Assembly (NCBI GenBank): GCA_049296775.1
Contig: JBAQTB010000001.1
Span: 288,992-352,991, forward strand
Direction of reading: 5' to 3'
Length of the DNA: 64,000 nt
Origin: Patescibacteria group bacterium
GTDB taxonomy: Bacteria > Patescibacteriota > Patescibacteriia > UBA9934
Shown in pieces: positions 14,688 through 39,191 of this stretch. A program made the translations under genes and the position numbers. Numbering within the stretch: position 1 is the first letter of the stretch; each line of letters begins with the position of its first letter. The notes beneath the pieces were generated by a model. The model worked only from the letters and a program-made list of their open reading frames with translations, was not told where the DNA came from and made no database searches.

Positions 14688-15752
14688 ATGGCAAAAGCAG
14701 GAGTAAATCCAAGATTAGCAGCGGCCGCAGAAGCGATGAATCAGATCAAGGAACGTTTTGGTGAGGGGAGTATTATGCGTTTTGGTGAGGCTAAGTCTAC
14801 CAACGTAGACGCCGTGCCGACCGGTTGTTTGTCATTAGATCTGGCGCTCGGAGCTTTGGGTGTGCCAAGAGGTCGGGTGATTGAAATTTACGGACCTGAA
14901 TCCTCAGGTAAGACCACCTTGGCTCAGCACATCATTGCAGAATGCCAGAAGGCGGGTGGAATTGCGGCTTTCGTGGATGCTGAGCATGCCCTAGATCCTG
15001 ATTACGCTAGAAAAATCGGAGTGAATGTTGATGAGTTGTTCATTTCTCAACCAGACACGGGTGAACAGGCATTGGAAATTGTAGAAACCTTGGTACGTTC
15101 CAATGCGATTGATGTAATCGTGGTGGACTCGGTGGCAGCTTTGACACCTAAGGCGGAAATTGAGGGCGAGATGGGGGATAGCCACATGGGTCTGCAGGCG
15201 CGTTTAATGAGCCAGGCTTTGCGTAAACTCACTGGGACACTATCTAAGACGGGTACGGTGCTGGTTTTCATTAACCAGATCCGTATGAAGATTGGCGTGA
15301 TGTTCGGTAATCCAGAAACCACTCCGGGTGGTAACGCGCTTAAGTTTTATGCTTCGGTGCGTATGGAGATCCGTAGAGCAGCTCAAATTAAGCAGGGGGA
15401 CAAAGTCATTGGTAACCGGGTCAAGGTTAAGATTGTAAAAAATAAGGTCGCGCCGCCTTTCCGAACAGCAGAATTCGATATTATGTACAATGAAGGAATT
15501 TCTGTGGCTGGCGATATGTTGGACCTTGGGGTGACGGTCGGGTCTTTGGATAAGCGTGGTAATAGCTATGTTTTTGGAGAGGAAAAGCTTGGAGTTGGTC
15601 GTGAGGTAGCCAAATTGTACTTGCGTGAACATCCTGAAACCATGGAAAAACTACGCGGTAAAACTCGAGAAGCAGCTTTGAAGGCTGAGGGTTTGCTCCC
15701 AGTAGCTTCTGAGCTGGATGAGGCAGAATCACCGGTGGCAGAGGTTGTTTAG
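14688..15752 (+). CDS. recA: Recombinase RecA
   Basis: [18 protein letters not shown] Walker A; FVDAEHALD; [28 protein letters not shown]. Canonical throughout. Confidence 0.95.
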
Positions 15753-23932: not shown

Positions 23933-24433
23933 ATGCAGGCCAAGTCAGGAAAAATTATTTTAGGTCTTGATCCTGGGTATGGGCGCTTGGGTTTTGGGGT
24001 GATTGCTGCTGATGAGCGGAGGAAGCTGAGTTACGTGGGTTGTGGCGTGATTACCACCGCTAAAGGTGTGGTGCACCGGGACAGGCTGTTTGAAATCGCT
24101 AAGGATTTAGAGGCATTAATTGCTAGATATAGTCCCACTTTGATTGCAGTTGAGGAGTTGTTTTTTGTTAAGAATATAACTACAGCCTTAAAAGTTGCAG
24201 AAGTTCGGGGGATTATTTTGTATTTGTCAGCTAAGTATCAGATTGATCTCATTGAGATTAAGCCGACCGAGATCAAGATGGCGGTGAGTGGAGACGGGCA
24301 TGCAGATAAGTTGCAGATGCAAAAAATGATCACGATGTTGCTAAAATTAGCTACGGTACCACAGCCGGATGACGCTGCGGATGCTTTGGCGGTGGCGTGG
24401 GCGGGGGAGGGTAAGTTTAGGGTGTTGGATTAG
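23933..24433 (+). CDS. ruvC: Holliday junction resolvase RuvC
   Basis: ILGLDPGYGRLGFGV catalytic Asp region; a C-terminal DDAADALAVA acidic motif. Confidence 0.85.
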   Translation: MQAKSGKIILGLDPGYGRLGFGVIAADERRKLSYVGCGVITTAKGVVHRDRLFEIAKDLEALIARYSPTLIAVEELFFVKNITTALKVAEVRGIILYLSAKYQIDLIEIKPTEIKMAVSGDGHADKLQMQKMITMLLKLATVPQPDDAADALAVAWAGEGKFRVLD

Positions 24434-29518: not shown

Positions 29519-29613
29519 GTAGAGACGGCCGTGAGGCCGTCTCTTACACATCGCGCGGGTGCATGCGTGATCGCGGGTGGAAAAGCGCGAGACGGCCAGA
29601 AGGCCGTCTCTAC
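29519..29613. repeat. Inverted doublet of REP-like palindromes (GTAG-initiated)
   Basis: Hairpin 1 (29519-29546) is GTAGAGACGGCC gtga GGCCGTCTCT. Hairpin 2 (29589-29613) is GAGACGGCC agaa GGCCGTCTCTAC, which is the same unit in the opposite orientation. Between them atcgcg(c)gggtg occurs twice. Confidence 0.5.
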
Positions 29614-29626
29614 GGCGATATGCAAT

Positions 29627-30136
29627 ATGCCAAATGACAGATTCCGTGATCGGTATCGTATTTCGTCGCCCCGATTATTGGGGTGGAATTATGCCAAATC
29701 GGGTTGGTATTTTGTGACGATATGCACAAAAAATCGTAATCATTATTTTGGTGATATCGTTACGATGCCTGATGGTATTGCTGGTATGGAATTAGGGCTT
29801 GCAGGTGATATTGCCTTAAGGGAAATTATGGCCCTGAAGACTCGCAGGCCGAATATAAACGTTGATACCTTTGTAGTCATGCCGAATCACGTGCACTTAC
29901 TGATTCAACTTGGAAAGCAGAATAACTCTGCACTTGGTGTCATAATTGGCCAATTAAAGGCGGGGATCACGCGCTGGGTTACGGATGCCGGGATGACTGA
30001 TTTTGCTTGGCAGGAGAGATTTCATGAGAAAATATTGCGATACGGTTTAGGCGTGGATGAGGTCCGTGCCTATATCCGTAATAATCCTAAGCAATGGCTT
30101 AAAGACCGCAATAACCCCCTGGGCATTTACATGTAG
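29627..30136 (+). CDS. HUH single-strand (Y1) transposase, IS200/IS605 TnpA or REP-associated tyrosine transposase (RAYT)-like
   Basis: WYFVTICTKNRNHYFG; the HUH motif MPNHVHLLIQL; a C-terminal catalytic-Tyr region RAYIRNNPKQW. About 170 aa. It lies immediately downstream of the palindrome doublet. The ORF-track start at 29330 overlaps the smc 3' end and is rejected in favour of the ATG at 29627. Confidence 0.65.
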   Translation: MPNDRFRDRYRISSPRLLGWNYAKSGWYFVTICTKNRNHYFGDIVTMPDGIAGMELGLAGDIALREIMALKTRRPNINVDTFVVMPNHVHLLIQLGKQNNSALGVIIGQLKAGITRWVTDAGMTDFAWQERFHEKILRYGLGVDEVRAYIRNNPKQWLKDRNNPLGIYM

Positions 30137-31057: not shown

Positions 31058-31058
31058 T

Positions 31059-31364
31059 ATGAAAATTTCGAAGCATCAGCATCGTTTTCTTCTTGGAGCA
31101 GGGTTGATTACGGTTTATACGTTGGTAGCTGGTTTTATTACGATGTCATCAGAACGTTTTTCGTTCTTGACTTTCCCACTGGCCCCTGGTGTTGTCGCTC
31201 CATTTCTTGTAGCCGAGGGGTTGTCGATAGACGTGTCATGGGAGAGCGGTGTCGTACCTTTTTTGATCACCATGTTTTTAATCGACGCTATCTTTTATGG
31301 ACTCGTCGGTGTGCTTGTAGGTTGGTTGGTCGATAAATATCGATCCATGAAGCAGCCATGTTAG
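31059..31364 (+). CDS. Small integral membrane protein
   Basis: 101 aa with three hydrophobic helices. The ATG is 2 nt after the methyltransferase stop. Confidence 0.4.
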   Translation: MKISKHQHRFLLGAGLITVYTLVAGFITMSSERFSFLTFPLAPGVVAPFLVAEGLSIDVSWESGVVPFLITMFLIDAIFYGLVGVLVGWLVDKYRSMKQPC

Positions 31365-31403
31365 CCTTGGCCTCTTAAGATTTCTCACTTTCGTTCGAAA
31401 TAT

Positions 31404-31667
31404 ATGTTCAAACTTGGAGCGCAATGTCAGAGCTGTGCGATGCCGATGTCGAAGGATCCTGAGAATGGTGGGCTGAATGCTGATGGTACAAAATCGACAG
31501 ATTATTGTAGTTTTTGTTTGAGAAACGGTGAGTTTTGTGCTAAAGAGACTTTAGAAGATTTTCGTAAAGGGCTTGATGAGATGTTAAAGGCTAAGGGTCT
31601 GTCCTGGTGGATTCGTAAATTGACCTGGTATCAGTTGCCGACTTTGAAGCGCTGGAAGCAGAAATAG
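31404..31667 (+). CDS. Zinc-ribbon domain protein (CxxC...CxxC)
   Basis: CQSCAMPMSKDPENGGLNADGTKSTDYCSFCLRNGEF is the pattern of the putative zinc-ribbon family common in Firmicutes. Confidence 0.55.
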   Translation: MFKLGAQCQSCAMPMSKDPENGGLNADGTKSTDYCSFCLRNGEFCAKETLEDFRKGLDEMLKAKGLSWWIRKLTWYQLPTLKRWKQK

Positions 31668-31678
31668 TGATTGCAAAT

Positions 31679-31708
31679 AAACTCGTGACATTGGTCACGA
31701 GTTTATTT
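31679..31708. terminator. Bidirectional terminator between convergent genes
   Basis: aaactcgtgac attg gtcacgagttt: a perfect 11-bp stem. Confidence 0.6.
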
Positions 31709-32716
31709 AATTCGACACAAATGTTTTAAGGCAGAAATGTCGGCGTCACTGAGTTCGCTGCTTTCACCTTCATTTAGCCGATACATCATCGCCGTTGGAT
31801 CTTCTACGTGATCCAGGCCGAGAGCGTGGCCAAGTTCATGAGCTAAAACGCGGATGAGTTTGTCTTGATTTTCAAATTGATAAATATTGATCTCGTCACC
31901 GTTATTGCTGGCGCCAAAAGTACCTTCTACAAATTCGTCACCGAGAGCATCGCCGATAGTGTTGTATCTGGTGGCGGTGAGGTTAAGTTTTTCTGATAGG
32001 TCATTTAAGGCATCAGCTAAAGTGTTGACGGTGTCGGCTGAGTCATTGATTGCGAGGACTTGTTCATTGATCACTGCCGCTTCGGCATTTACAGCCTCTC
32101 TTTCCGCAACTATTTCCTGTTTGTCTTTTGGCTTGATGCTGTCTTCTGTTTTTAAGGCATCCAAGCGTGCTTCATAAGCTTTGGCCCGGGCTTCATGGTC
32201 TTTGAGCTGTTGATCTAAAGTGGCTTTTTGATCTAAATAAGTTTGATAAGCAGATGCGTATTCATCTTTGAGAGCATTGTAACTGGCATTGTTGGTTTCA
32301 ATGGTGAGTCCGAGCTGGCTGAGACGCTTGGTACTTTCTTGGCGATAATCGTAAATTAAATTTATAGACAAATCTCCGTTTCCTTTGTGTATAAAAAGTT
32401 CTTTACCAAGAGAATCTTCCCAGATACTTTCGGCGGCTAAAATGGCAGCGGCGAATTGTTCTTCTGTGAGGTTGAAGCGGGGATCGACTGACTTGATAGA
32501 GTAGCTGATGGGGGACTTGCACGGAAAGAACGAGTGGCGTAAGTCTTGAAGAGTAGAGAGTTTGAAATAATCACGATAAATAAAGATGACCCCAACGAGT
32601 ACAATACTAAGCAAGCCTAGCCAGATGACATCAAGGACGCTTTTGATCTGATTACGCTTGGGACGTTTGAACATAAAATTAGCATACCTCATTATGGCTA
32701 AAATAATCCATAACAA
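31703..32716 (-). CDS. Membrane-anchored zinc metalloprotease, matrixin-like (HExxHxxGxxH plus Met-turn)
   Basis: VLAHELGHALGLDHVEDPTAMMY: a zincin motif with three His and an AMMY Met-turn. An N-terminal TM segment and a central coiled-coil (KDHEARAKAYEARLDALK). The true start is probably an internal Met (32692 or 32674). Confidence 0.65.
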   Translation of the reverse strand: MLWIILAIMRYANFMFKRPKRNQIKSVLDVIWLGLLSIVLVGVIFIYRDYFKLSTLQDLRHSFFPCKSPISYSIKSVDPRFNLTEEQFAAAILAAESIWEDSLGKELFIHKGNGDLSINLIYDYRQESTKRLSQLGLTIETNNASYNALKDEYASAYQTYLDQKATLDQQLKDHEARAKAYEARLDALKTEDSIKPKDKQEIVAEREAVNAEAAVINEQVLAINDSADTVNTLADALNDLSEKLNLTATRYNTIGDALGDEFVEGTFGASNNGDEINIYQFENQDKLIRVLAHELGHALGLDHVEDPTAMMYRLNEGESSELSDADISALKHLCRIK

Positions 32717-33038
32717 GCTGATAAGAGATAAGATTCCAGAGATTTTAAGGCGTAAACAAGTACTGTTTGAATTGAAGCAACTGACTGAGAATGTGGAGTT
32801 TGAACAGGCTTTACGCGGGAAATTGGTTGAGGAAGCTGCGGAGGTTGCGGCTACATTAGATCATGAGGCTTTAGTGACAGAGCTGGCGGACGTGGCTGAA
32901 GTGGTGAAGTCTTTATGCGTATTGAAAGGGATTACAGCCGAGGAGATTGAACGGGCGAGAGCGCAGAAATTTACGGAGCGAGGTGGTTTTGATGAGCGGA
33001 CCTGGCTCATGTGGAGTGATGAAACTGAGAAAAAATAA
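32694..33038 (+). CDS. MazG-like nucleotide pyrophosphohydrolase (small all-alpha NTP-PPase)
   Basis: IIHNKLIRDKIPEI...KLVEEAAEV...ELADVAEVV matches the EExxE metal-binding helices of the MazG-like family. Divergent and overlapping with the metalloprotease gene start. Confidence 0.55.
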   Translation: MAKIIHNKLIRDKIPEILRRKQVLFELKQLTENVEFEQALRGKLVEEAAEVAATLDHEALVTELADVAEVVKSLCVLKGITAEEIERARAQKFTERGGFDERTWLMWSDETEKK

Positions 33039-33088
33039 GACGCCGCGTCCTCGGAGCAAGGCTCAGACGAGGACGCGGCGTACGGCTA
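33013..33088 (+). repeat. 76-bp direct repeat, copy 1 (contains a strong hairpin and the last codons of the MazG-like gene)
   Basis: ggagtgatgaaactgagaaaaaataagacgccgcgtcctcggagcaaggctcagacgaggacgcggcgtacggcta. The internal palindrome is gacgccgcgtcctcg...cgaggacgcggcgt. Confidence 0.85.
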
Positions 33089-33113
33089 CTTGGAATTTTG
33101 TTTCCAGAACCTC

Positions 33114-33638
33114 TTAGGTAGGATCGTCAATACCGACGATAATCTTTTCACCCTGCGGATTGAAGGCTGTACGGGGCCGGTAAGCTCCGTACAGATCTGA
33201 GTGGAAATCTCCACGGACGGGCTCTGGGGTGAGACCGAGCGCTACCAGTACGGTAGCTATGAAGGATGATCCTTCACTCGTGCCAGAGTTCCACTCGACT
33301 CGAGAGTCGGAGTGGAATCGTACAAAACGACCAGACTCCTTGCCTCCCTGAAAGGGGTACCAGGTCATTGTTGACCCGTCCTCCTCCATGGTGGCGTTGG
33401 TTCTATCGCCTCCCTCCTCACAGAGGATTTCGAGATCCGTCCAAGAGGGGTCGGGCAGCTCAGGTACGCGACCGTCGCGCCAGTATTGATCCCCTGTAAT
33501 CAGGGCGGCAGCTACGCGTACCGCATATTGCGGTGCGACGGTGGTCCCAGTGGCGCTGACGACGGTATTCATGCTAACTCCTCGAGCGTTAGCTCTGGCG
33601 AATTGCCAGAGTGATGTCGCTCTCGCTCGTTCTATCAC
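33114..33638 (-). CDS. Hypothetical protein, GC-rich orphan (between the direct repeats)
   Basis: 174-aa ORF with codon usage visibly GC-richer than the flanking genes. No recognisable motif. Confidence 0.4.
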   Translation of the reverse strand: MIERARATSLWQFARANARGVSMNTVVSATGTTVAPQYAVRVAAALITGDQYWRDGRVPELPDPSWTDLEILCEEGGDRTNATMEEDGSTMTWYPFQGGKESGRFVRFHSDSRVEWNSGTSEGSSFIATVLVALGLTPEPVRGDFHSDLYGAYRPRTAFNPQGEKIIVGIDDPT

Positions 33639-33889
33639 AAATTGCGATAGAAAGAATGAGAGCGTCAGCAGAAATGCAGGCTAGGAGATATATTTTAGGT
33701 CAGTATTCAATTGTGATGATACAGATCAAATGACGTGGAATCTTAATTTTTCCAGTTTATTTTGACGAAGAACTATAGCATTTTTTAGTAGAAATGTCAA
33801 TCAAATTATGACAATTATGCTAAAAACTAAGCAAAATAAGTGTATTGTTCGCAACTATACTGCCATTGTTTTAATGACATACTGAGTAC

Positions 33890-33965
33890 GGAGTGACGAA
33901 ACTGAGAAAAAATAAGACGCCGCGTCCTCGGAGCAAGGCTCAGACGAGGACGCGGCGTACGGCTA
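33890..33965 (+). repeat. 76-bp direct repeat, copy 2 (one mismatch to copy 1)
   Basis: Identical to 33013-33088 except t to c at the eighth base. It is preceded by an AT-rich non-coding stretch of about 250 bp (33640-33889). Its last three bases form the stop codon of the 33963..34751 gene. Confidence 0.85.
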
Positions 33966-34751
33966 GTTGCCGAACTCTGCTTTCAATTCTTCATGCGTGA
34001 AGCCTTGTTGAGCGAAACACATAAACTTTTCTCGATCCATTGCCTGGAGGCGTGGAGTCCCGATATGCGGGAGCACATTACGGCTCCAGGCTAATTCAGT
34101 CGCCACTACCCGGGAATTTGGGTCTGTACGCGTGTAGTGGAAGCATTGTCCGGCGTGGACCTGTTGAGCGGGGATTCCGCTACTCAGGGTTGACCTGATC
34201 TTACTCGGCCACGGTCGTTCGAGCATGATCTGGAAGGCGAGCAGCGTGTCGATGTCGCCAACGATGAGCGCGTTGCTATGTCCAGAGTCGTTGCTCTGGA
34301 TTAGCTCCGTGAATAATGGCAACAGGCGAATAATGACTTGGTTTGGGGGCTCAAATTTTGGAGGTGCCCAGTAGCGCAAGTCTCGATTTGGTTGCGCGGT
34401 AAGCTCAGTTGCACAACCAGAGTAGCGATCGCGGTTCCCGATGGGACCGATGTGTTCCCATGTGTGTCCGGTCAGTTCTGATCTGACGTTCCATTCGGCG
34501 TCCTCGAAGCCTAAGCGGTAAGCTGTTTCTCGTGCAGGTCTCGATTCAGGCATCAGGCATTGGTCGAAGTTTTTCAGGCCATTGGCTCTGAGCCAGTTCC
34601 CGGTAGCTATGACTTGAGAGGTGCCTACAGACGTGAGTGTGGCTGTGTGTTGTCGGTCATGCCGATTAGGCAAGTCCTCGACGCTTTTTGGTACATTGGT
34701 ACCGATATGCCAGTCACCTACGCACACCAGTACCAAATTCATTGGTCCCAT
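33963..34751 (-). CDS. Hypothetical protein, GC-rich orphan (possible phosphoesterase-like; uncertain)
   Basis: 262 aa with GC-rich codon usage. Weak GDxHxG-like (CVGDWHIG) and IVGDID motifs. No confident family assignment. Confidence 0.45.
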   Translation of the reverse strand: MGPMNLVLVCVGDWHIGTNVPKSVEDLPNRHDRQHTATLTSVGTSQVIATGNWLRANGLKNFDQCLMPESRPARETAYRLGFEDAEWNVRSELTGHTWEHIGPIGNRDRYSGCATELTAQPNRDLRYWAPPKFEPPNQVIIRLLPLFTELIQSNDSGHSNALIVGDIDTLLAFQIMLERPWPSKIRSTLSSGIPAQQVHAGQCFHYTRTDPNSRVVATELAWSRNVLPHIGTPRLQAMDREKFMCFAQQGFTHEELKAEFGN

Positions 34752-34956
34752 TTTTACCCCCTAACAGTTGTGAGAATGTTCGCGTTGAGTGGTGATAGTT
34801 TATAGCTACAAATCTAGCTAAAGTCAAATATGTTTAGGTTATTTGCCCCGACAGGCCTTGACAAAGATTGCTGACAAAGCTACTCTTTGGCGACTAAACT
34901 TTATTTACTTTCAGATTTTGGACGCTTTTAGCCGCATCCGAATTCTGACCTTGATT

Positions 34957-37181: not shown

Positions 37182-37579
37182 GCCGCTCGTCGCTGAAAGA
37201 TCCTTAGTCCTTTCCCATTCGGTCCATTTTCGACTCACGAAGCCTCGGCGGTTTCGTCTACGTAGTATTCACTACGTTTCCTCACCGCCACTCCGTTTAT
37301 CGAAACTAGCCTCGAATGAGAAAGTCCTAATGTCAAAATCTTCTGGACGTGGACTTTCACAATTTAGATAACCATATCAAAACGATGTATCAACCCCACA
37401 GTAGAAGCTTCGCTTCACTGTAGGGCTAAGCAATGATTAATTGTGTGATTACAACGTCCTATTCCAAAGTCCTAAACCCTCGGGTTTAGGCGACTATGAG
37501 GTGATACGTAAGTATCTACTTAATGGTTTAGCAGATACCCCAAACGTAGCTCCGCAAGGAGCGAAGTGGGGGTGTTTTT

Positions 37580-39071
<1,492 letters not shown>

Positions 39072-39191
39072 TCAAAGGAATTTTCCTTTATCGGTCGAGA
39101 TCATAGAGTCGTACGTAAGTATGACTTTACGATACACGGGACGTTGTAATCACAGAGTTAGTCATTAGAGCATCGCTTGATTGGTATCAAA

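Follow-up and report, generated by a model that had tools for sequence, protein, structure and literature searches.

What could have placed two nearly identical copies of a hairpin-bearing sequence on either side of a single GC-rich gene in a Patescibacteria genome? The question is raised by a stretch of 64,000 nt, called the window here, from contig JBAQTB010000001.1 (positions 288,992 to 352,991; GenBank assembly GCA_049296775.1, Patescibacteria group bacterium). In this window, a MazG-like gene is followed by the first repeat copy, a gene on the opposite strand (open reading frame ORF152), the second copy and another leftward gene (ORF262); the positions of these features, counted from the first letter of the window, are collected in Table 1. 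A sequence-only reading of the locus had described the repeats and regarded them as the scar of a site-specific or replicative insertion, or else as a small mobile repeat bearing the hairpin. Our analysis leads to another mechanism, which we place slightly on the probable side: host recombination, of the Campbell type or illegitimate, would have inserted the gene between the copies and thereby duplicated the native junction of two convergent genes.

To describe the repeat pair, we ran a repeat search over the window. The two direct repeats are 80 nt long and 98% identical, with a start-to-start distance of 877 bp and only two mismatches, at 33020 (T/C) and 33089 (C/G; the copy-2 counterpart is 33966), between which lies an exact core of 68 nt (33021-33088). 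The earlier description of 76 nt with one mismatch (33013-33088), repeated 877 bp downstream, proved accurate in both the repeat search and our reading of the sequence. In the window, the 43-nt hairpin core has exactly two occurrences, while 100 shuffles gave no match, and there is no second long near-perfect repeat. For an independent check of the assembly, we used the k=31 Logan assembly of run SRR28012402, in which the two flanking contigs end at the last 31-mers that still hold the mismatch at 33020 and at 33966, respectively. These contigs break exactly where a true two-copy repeat would be expected to break them. The NCBI locus tags of the source metagenome-assembled genome are WAZ14_01570 and WAZ14_01575.

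To figure out what the repeat consists of, we compared its two ends with the genes that they touch. Copy 1 starts inside a Trp codon of the MazG-like gene and continues through SDETEKK and the stop codon. The encoded protein matches the Pfam families PRA-PH (1.7e-4) and MazG (1e-3) and has 114 homologues, all of which are at most 49% identical to it. Its C-terminus, WSDETEKK, has a tail length and an acidic/basic character that are common to the 23 homologues compared, while W-S/T stands at the equivalent tail position in several of them and the homologue at a syntenic locus (L004) ends with LLWSEDD.... Since this tail fits the family, copy 1 is the authentic end of the MazG-like gene, and therefore copy 2 holds a dead 26-nt fragment of it, in which the only difference is a synonymous change (GAT to GAC). 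At the right edge, the repeat ends with the stop codon of ORF262 (CTA at 33963-33965), which lies inside copy 2, just as the sequence-only reading had stated when it assigned the stop of the next gene to the second copy; copy 1 retains a matching CAAG-TAG. Judged from these sequences, the repeat is native, the whole junction between two convergent genes and not an imported unit, and the proposal that the repeats duplicate a host target sequence is borne out by the family-typical C-terminus in one copy and the 26-nt gene fragment in the other.

The hairpin in each copy consists of a 14-bp perfect GC stem, a 3-nt bulge and a 4-bp inner stem, with a folding free energy (dG) of -35.3 kcal/mol for the RNA (z = -5.3 against shuffles). 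Its presence in both copies had been noticed correctly, but the perfect stem has 14 bp rather than the 15 bp first given. Read on the minus strand, the stem-loop runs directly into a U-tract, CUUAUUUUUUCUC, complementary to the two Lys codons and the stop codon that end the MazG-like gene, whereas on the plus strand it is followed by ACGGCTAC, without a U-tract. The stem-loop begins 4 nt past the stop of ORF262 and 32 nt past the stop of ORF152 on the minus strand. Because the U-tract occurs on the minus strand only, the hairpin is predicted to be an intrinsic terminator of the leftward genes, and its former assignment as terminator of the MazG-like gene has to be given up. It resembles rho-independent terminators in its GC-rich stem-loop (dG of about -35 kcal/mol) and its U-tract downstream of stop codons. 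It differs from most other terminator-like hairpins of the window, which are short bidirectional structures made of an A-tract, a stem and a T-tract, in its longer stem (14+4 bp), and its U-tract overlaps with the 3' end of the coding sequence of the convergent MazG-like gene.

Between the two copies lies an insert of 797 bp with a single gene, which makes a unit of 877 bp together with one repeat copy. This gene had been taken to encode 174 aa, but the length is more likely 152 aa, with an ATG at 33572 that follows GAGGAG and is identical with the start in the NCBI annotation. The GC content of the frame is lowest at codon position 2, as is usual for coding sequence. It turned out that ORF152 had only a self match among 5.8 billion proteins and no match in Pfam, NCBIfam, PHROGs, PADLOC or PDB sequences, that tblastn found nothing in phage or plasmid records, and that an exact-protein look-up in Logan assemblies had neither the 152-aa nor the 174-aa version on record. 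Its description as an orphan therefore holds for the 5.8 billion proteins and the family databases, and a defence, phage or plasmid origin was rejected, as PADLOC, PHROGs, NCBIfam and the phage and plasmid tblastn searches were all empty. A tandem-duplication origin of ORF152 and ORF262 was also rejected, since BLASTP showed no similarity between the two proteins. Single-sequence AlphaFold2 models were unusable (pLDDT 29 and 36).

Upstream of ORF152, a predicted sigma-70 promoter sits in an AT-rich spacer (GC about 0.30), in which we found no residual similarity to MazG, to the region upstream of ORF262 or to the relatives. The promoter is followed by a structured leader: the segment 33560-33766, comprising the leader and the first 13 nt of ORF152, has a dG of -58.1 (z = -4.2 against shuffles), a long imperfect hairpin is located at about 33610-33655, and the predicted pairing sequesters the ribosome-binding site (RBS). 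By this folding model, it could be a cis-regulatory leader. The region gave no Rfam match at E<=1, so an RNA element of a known family was rejected. Taken together, the insert is a complete predicted expression unit, with promoter, leader, RBS and ORF152, provided that the promoter is used.

To place the locus in its lineage, we searched for relatives with TrmD, and the nearest ones were Candidatus Uhrbacteria-like genomes with 61-75% identity. The order of SMC, (Y1), methyltransferase (MT297), a variable slot, rpsP, KH and trmD is kept in about 10 Uhrbacteria-like loci, and neither ORF152 nor ORF262 exists in any of these syntenic loci; the M10 peptidase gene beside the MazG-like gene is also missing from them. 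The slot varies from about 0.1 to 3.8 kb across genomes and carries different cargo in each (window positions 31058-34833 against the relatives' loci L004 to L010). For example, it is empty in L008 and L010, it holds a 38%-identical MazG and an unrelated 123-aa ORF in L004, and it holds other unrelated ORFs in L005 and L006, one of which resembles, by reading, the gene of orotidine monophosphate (OMP) decarboxylase (pyrF). In the window, the slot carries six lineage-specific genes. Similarity to the relatives resumes at a conserved rpsP promoter block at about 34834, which is thus the right edge of the lineage-specific DNA. By this comparison of gene order, the interval between the methyltransferase gene and rpsP is a hotspot where Uhrbacteria-like genomes vary in gene content. 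The notion of inserted DNA bracketed by repeats gains from it too, as the 797 bp are absent from every syntenic relative and the geometry is that of a duplicated target or att site. The sequence-only reading had named conservation of the two genes at this position across the lineage as an observation that would speak against an insertion; neither gene was found in any relative.

We therefore consider an insertion by host recombination. A self-contained ORF152 unit of 797 bp would have recombined in at the MazG-hairpin-ORF262 junction, so that the junction was duplicated, either through one Campbell-type crossover inside the 68 identical nt of the core or through illegitimate joining, in which two alternative cassettes came to be stacked behind the terminator at the MazG-like gene; both routes would give the same structure. 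The crossover partner might be a small DNA circle or a sibling chromosome with the same core. A crossover inside the core would leave an exact 68-nt core with mismatches at the repeat edges, as found. The insert encodes no recombinase, and host recombination functions would do the work; RecA (14688-15752) and RuvC (23933-24433) are both encoded in the window. The MazG-like gene and ORF262 would stay intact after the duplication, and the two copies would provide rho-independent termination for the leftward genes that immediately precede them, copy 2 for ORF262 and copy 1 for ORF152. So read, the locus is a recombination scar of an ordinary kind at a variable hotspot; it is not a new type of element, nor is it a repeat present in many copies. 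It would show how a complete expression unit with a single gene can enter a streamlined genome of Patescibacteria without a recombinase encoded by the element, a gain that spares both convergent neighbours and provides the same terminator for each leftward gene. Besides, the 68-nt exact direct repeats predict an 877-bp deletion, which would restore the MazG-hairpin-ORF262 arrangement.

Base composition was considered as a further sign of foreign origin. The GC content of ORF152 is 0.568 (+2.0 standard deviations, sd) and that of ORF262 is 0.534 (+1.1 sd), compared with a mean of 0.492 (sd 0.037) for the 55 ORFs of the window, and other window genes reach equally high values. The z scores of synonymous codon usage are -1.5 and -1.7 for the two minus-strand ORFs, respectively. 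In this mostly plus-strand window, all minus-strand genes fit the synonymous codons worse than plus-strand genes do, and a codon-based test of foreignness is therefore confounded, because the strand-specific bias lowers every minus-strand gene. Codon usage was rejected as evidence of foreign origin, since ORF152 and ORF262 are not outliers among minus-strand genes. Thus the insertion had been called GC-rich with some justification, as its GC is above the mean, but the excess is modest and the codon usage is typical of the minus strand. The plus-strand GC skew is positive across the profiled 30-38 kb.

Several points weigh against the insertion by host recombination. The compositional signal of foreign origin is weak. 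There are no close relatives, as the best TrmD match has 75% and the best MazG match 49% identity, and the syntenic loci lack the whole MazG-ORF262 arrangement, save the 38%-identical MazG in L004. No empty site, circle or second insert context was found, so that the insertion is read from one genome, and further copies of the repeat were sought in only 64 kb of it. Either the ORF152 block or the stretch with the MazG fragment, its hairpin and ORF262 may have been the later arrival. Moreover, this reading does not account for a donor that carries 68-80 nt of homology.

A recombinase acting in trans would leave a similar picture. The 877-bp unit would then be an integrase-less element like the cis-mobilizable elements (CIMEs), with the two copies as attL and attR and with a recombinase encoded elsewhere in the genome or brought by a phage. 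Direct repeats that include a gene 3' end are the classic att arrangement, the exact core is flanked by mismatches, and, as in attL/attR islands or CIMEs at gene 3' ends (Campbell model), the repeats enclose lineage-specific DNA, the target gene is intact and the edges of the core diverge. However, Pfam scans and precomputed Logan annotations revealed no tyrosine or serine recombinase, integrase or DDE transposase in the insert or among the window ORFs that were checked, which leaves the dedicated site-specific or replicative mechanism proposed at first without an integrase or DDE transposase there; nor does the insert, of only 797 bp, contain any remnant of mobility genes, and the hairpin or att sequence occurs in no other genome or virus collection searched. 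CIMEs are elements which keep attL and attR, have lost the integration genes and derive from an integrative and conjugative element (ICE) or an integrative and mobilizable element (IME) (PMC5704250). In our case the repeats are present and the mobility genes absent, with no sign of ICE or IME ancestry, and the locus departs from attL/attR islands in having no integrase in or near it, a single gene unit as cargo, a long repeat (76-80 bp) centred on a terminator hairpin, and no observed excised form or empty site. We regard an integrase in trans as unlikely. A precedent for host-driven movement is the H47 genomic island of E. coli, which is integrase-less, has long flanking repeats and is moved by host functions (PMC5426353). 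It shares with our locus a small size, extensive direct repeats, the lack of an own recombinase and, on the reading preferred here, host dependence, but H47 has 13 kb and imperfect multi-block repeats and its excision was shown experimentally, while the repeats here are near-perfect and known from sequence alone. Integron cassettes with their attC sites offer another comparison, in which a hairpin would be the recombination site for the capture of ORF-hairpin units. Both systems have tandem single-gene units of less than 1 kb, each followed by a hairpin-forming repeat; the minus-strand order ORF262-repeat-ORF152-repeat and the 877-bp single-gene unit are indeed cassette-like. Yet the window has no IntI gene and no attI site beside the array, the core sites R''/R' (RYYYAAC/GTTRRRY) are absent, the edges reading CGGCAAC and CTTGGAA / GTTGCCG, and R and L boxes are likewise missing. 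Besides, the 14-bp stem pairs perfectly, next to a single 3-nt bulge, unlike an imperfect attC fold; a strong promoter lies within the supposed cassette itself, and part of the repeat is host coding sequence. An integron-like cassette array is thus already largely refuted, and we give it hardly any credence.

The hairpin might also be mobile by itself, as in REP/RAYT systems, as a palindrome-associated transposable element (PATE) of the IS200/IS605 type or as a miniature inverted-repeat transposable element (MITE). The enzyme would be the Y1_Tnp-like (IS200-like) protein, the sole HUH protein of the window, whose gene (29534-30136) lies between SMC and the methyltransferase, 3 kb from the repeats, and the element would supply the C-terminus of the MazG-like protein. 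Two identical hairpins in direct orientation around an ORF do resemble a left-end/right-end (LE/RE) architecture, and the nearby Y1 HUH gene is a further likeness to PATEs and REP/RAYT. To look for further copies, we queried sequence collections with the stem pattern and any loop of 3-24 nt. There was no match in 185,579 species genomes, a set that does not include the source genome, and none in IMG/VR; among 241 million JGI metagenome records there was 1 (L087, 431-468). This match agrees in the 14-bp stem and in the flanking G and AC but not in its 10-nt loop, and it lies in a high-GC contig where the neighbours are, by reading, genes for a succinate-dehydrogenase Fe-S subunit and an AlkB-type oxygenase; as roughly 0.1-0.7 chance matches would be expected among GC-rich hairpins, it is probably a coincidence. 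With only two adjacent copies in the 64 kb and this one chance-level match, the suggestion of a small mobile repeat finds no support. Moreover, the repeat reaches into family-typical MazG coding sequence, the one hairpin next to the Y1 gene (29521-29544) has no sequence relationship with the repeat, and the insert has neither terminal inverted repeats at its ends nor a short target-site duplication, the flanking repeat being 76-80 bp at a single locus. The Y1 gene has a 38%-identical counterpart at the same position in L010, and this synteny suggests a resident, possibly domesticated gene rather than an active insertion sequence (IS). On balance, we judge a mobile hairpin repeat to be highly improbable. 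A bolder combination of these ideas would see the 76-nt hairpin unit as the recombination site of an integrase-independent cassette capture in bacteria of the candidate phyla radiation (CPR), an integron-like hotspot on terminators, where promoter-ORF units are inserted next to a terminator hairpin and carry a hairpin copy along, possibly through the action of the neighbouring single-copy Y1 HUH protein on the extruded hairpin; we mention it as a long shot with next to no probability. Finally, the structure could be an assembly artefact, in which two strain variants, or an 877-bp circle and an empty site, were threaded together through the 68-nt core. It is true that a k=31 assembly cannot resolve the repeat, that the Logan contigs break exactly there, and that no Logan gene was recovered for the middle segment. 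But the junction between the AT-rich spacer and copy 2 must exist in reads, the core with both mismatches (70 nt) could fit into single reads if these are about 100 nt or longer, and the locus lies in an NCBI contig of 455,697 bp, so that we think an artefact improbable.

For ORF262, the gene beyond copy 2, phmmer found 201 homologues in an HMMER scan of 1.84 billion representatives, the best with an E-value of 1.3e-18 (P0117), at 25-33% identity. These homologues score PF00300 (histidine phosphatase superfamily branch 1) at 1e-24 to 1e-34, although ORF262 itself has no direct Pfam match and a word-indexed protein search returned only the protein itself. Hence this gene, which had been counted as a second orphan of 262 aa, has 201 remote homologues in the histidine phosphatase superfamily. 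In the alignment to them, RHGES, which holds the RHG motif, is replaced by CVGDW and CHGE, with the second catalytic histidine, by VGDI, and the RER motif is also replaced. Judging from these replacements, ORF262 is probably a degenerate member of the superfamily without the catalytic residues, inactive as a phosphatase. There was no match in PADLOC, PHROGs or NCBIfam, and a defence or phage origin of ORF262 was rejected with them. The closest active homologue is a His_Phos_1 protein of about 270 aa (L083, 6001-6810), the neighbours of which form an NAD-salvage cluster with NAPRTase, NAD synthase, CN hydrolase, an isochorismatase-type protein, ADP-ribosylglycohydrolase and a CTP_transf-like protein. 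A further member of the family carries a fused NAD kinase domain. From these contexts, the homologue subfamily of ORF262 may act in NAD(P) metabolism.

Table 1. Features of the repeat locus, in positions of the 64-kb window
Feature	Positions	Strand	Remarks
MazG/PRA-PH-like nucleoside triphosphate (NTP) pyrophosphohydrolase gene	32694..33038	+	114 aa; its last 26 nt form the left part of copy 1
Repeat copy 1	33013..33092		MazG 3' end, stop codon, hairpin, ACGGCTA, CAAG/TAG remnant
Hairpin 1	33040..33081	-	followed by CTTATTTTTTCTC; predicted intrinsic terminator of ORF152
ORF152	33114..33572	-	orphan protein gene, GC 0.57; GAGGAG RBS 5 nt upstream of ATG
Structured leader	33573..33766	-	about 190 nt upstream of ORF152; predicted pairing of the RBS region with upstream CUCCUAG
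Predicted sigma-70 promoter	33772..33800	-	TTGACA-17-TG-TATAGT, 11/12 consensus matches, extended -10, directed at ORF152
Repeat copy 2	33890..33969		first 26 nt are the dead MazG-like 3' fragment; last bases are Asn-stop of ORF262
Hairpin 2	33917..33958	-	followed by the same U-tract; predicted intrinsic terminator of ORF262
ORF262	33963..34751	-	probably degenerate histidine-phosphatase (His_Phos_1) homologue
Probable ORF262 promoter	34799..34827	-	TTGACT-17-TATAAA, read from sequence; scanner silent, last base of -10 is A
Conserved rpsP promoter block	34834..34872	+	CAGGCCTTGACAAA; blastn against L004, L005 and L009

On the left side of the locus, at 32692-32716, the divergent starts of the M10 peptidase gene on the minus strand and of the MazG-like gene on the plus strand abut or overlap, and there is essentially no intergenic space for a promoter between them. 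To the right, a stand-alone 16S rRNA gene is located at 37577-39072, 2.8 kb from the repeat locus, with the end of the Logan contig L001 just inside it; across the whole window, no match to 23S rRNA was reported. The 16S gene is bracketed by a 28-nt inverted repeat with 89% complementarity (37432-37459 and 39139-39166), presumably a processing stem. In addition, an 86-nt unit is repeated at a spacing of 120 nt with 81% identity at 1781-1986, an in-frame coding tandem repeat within a 683-aa ORF (5-2056) with a Peptidase_G2-like N-terminus.

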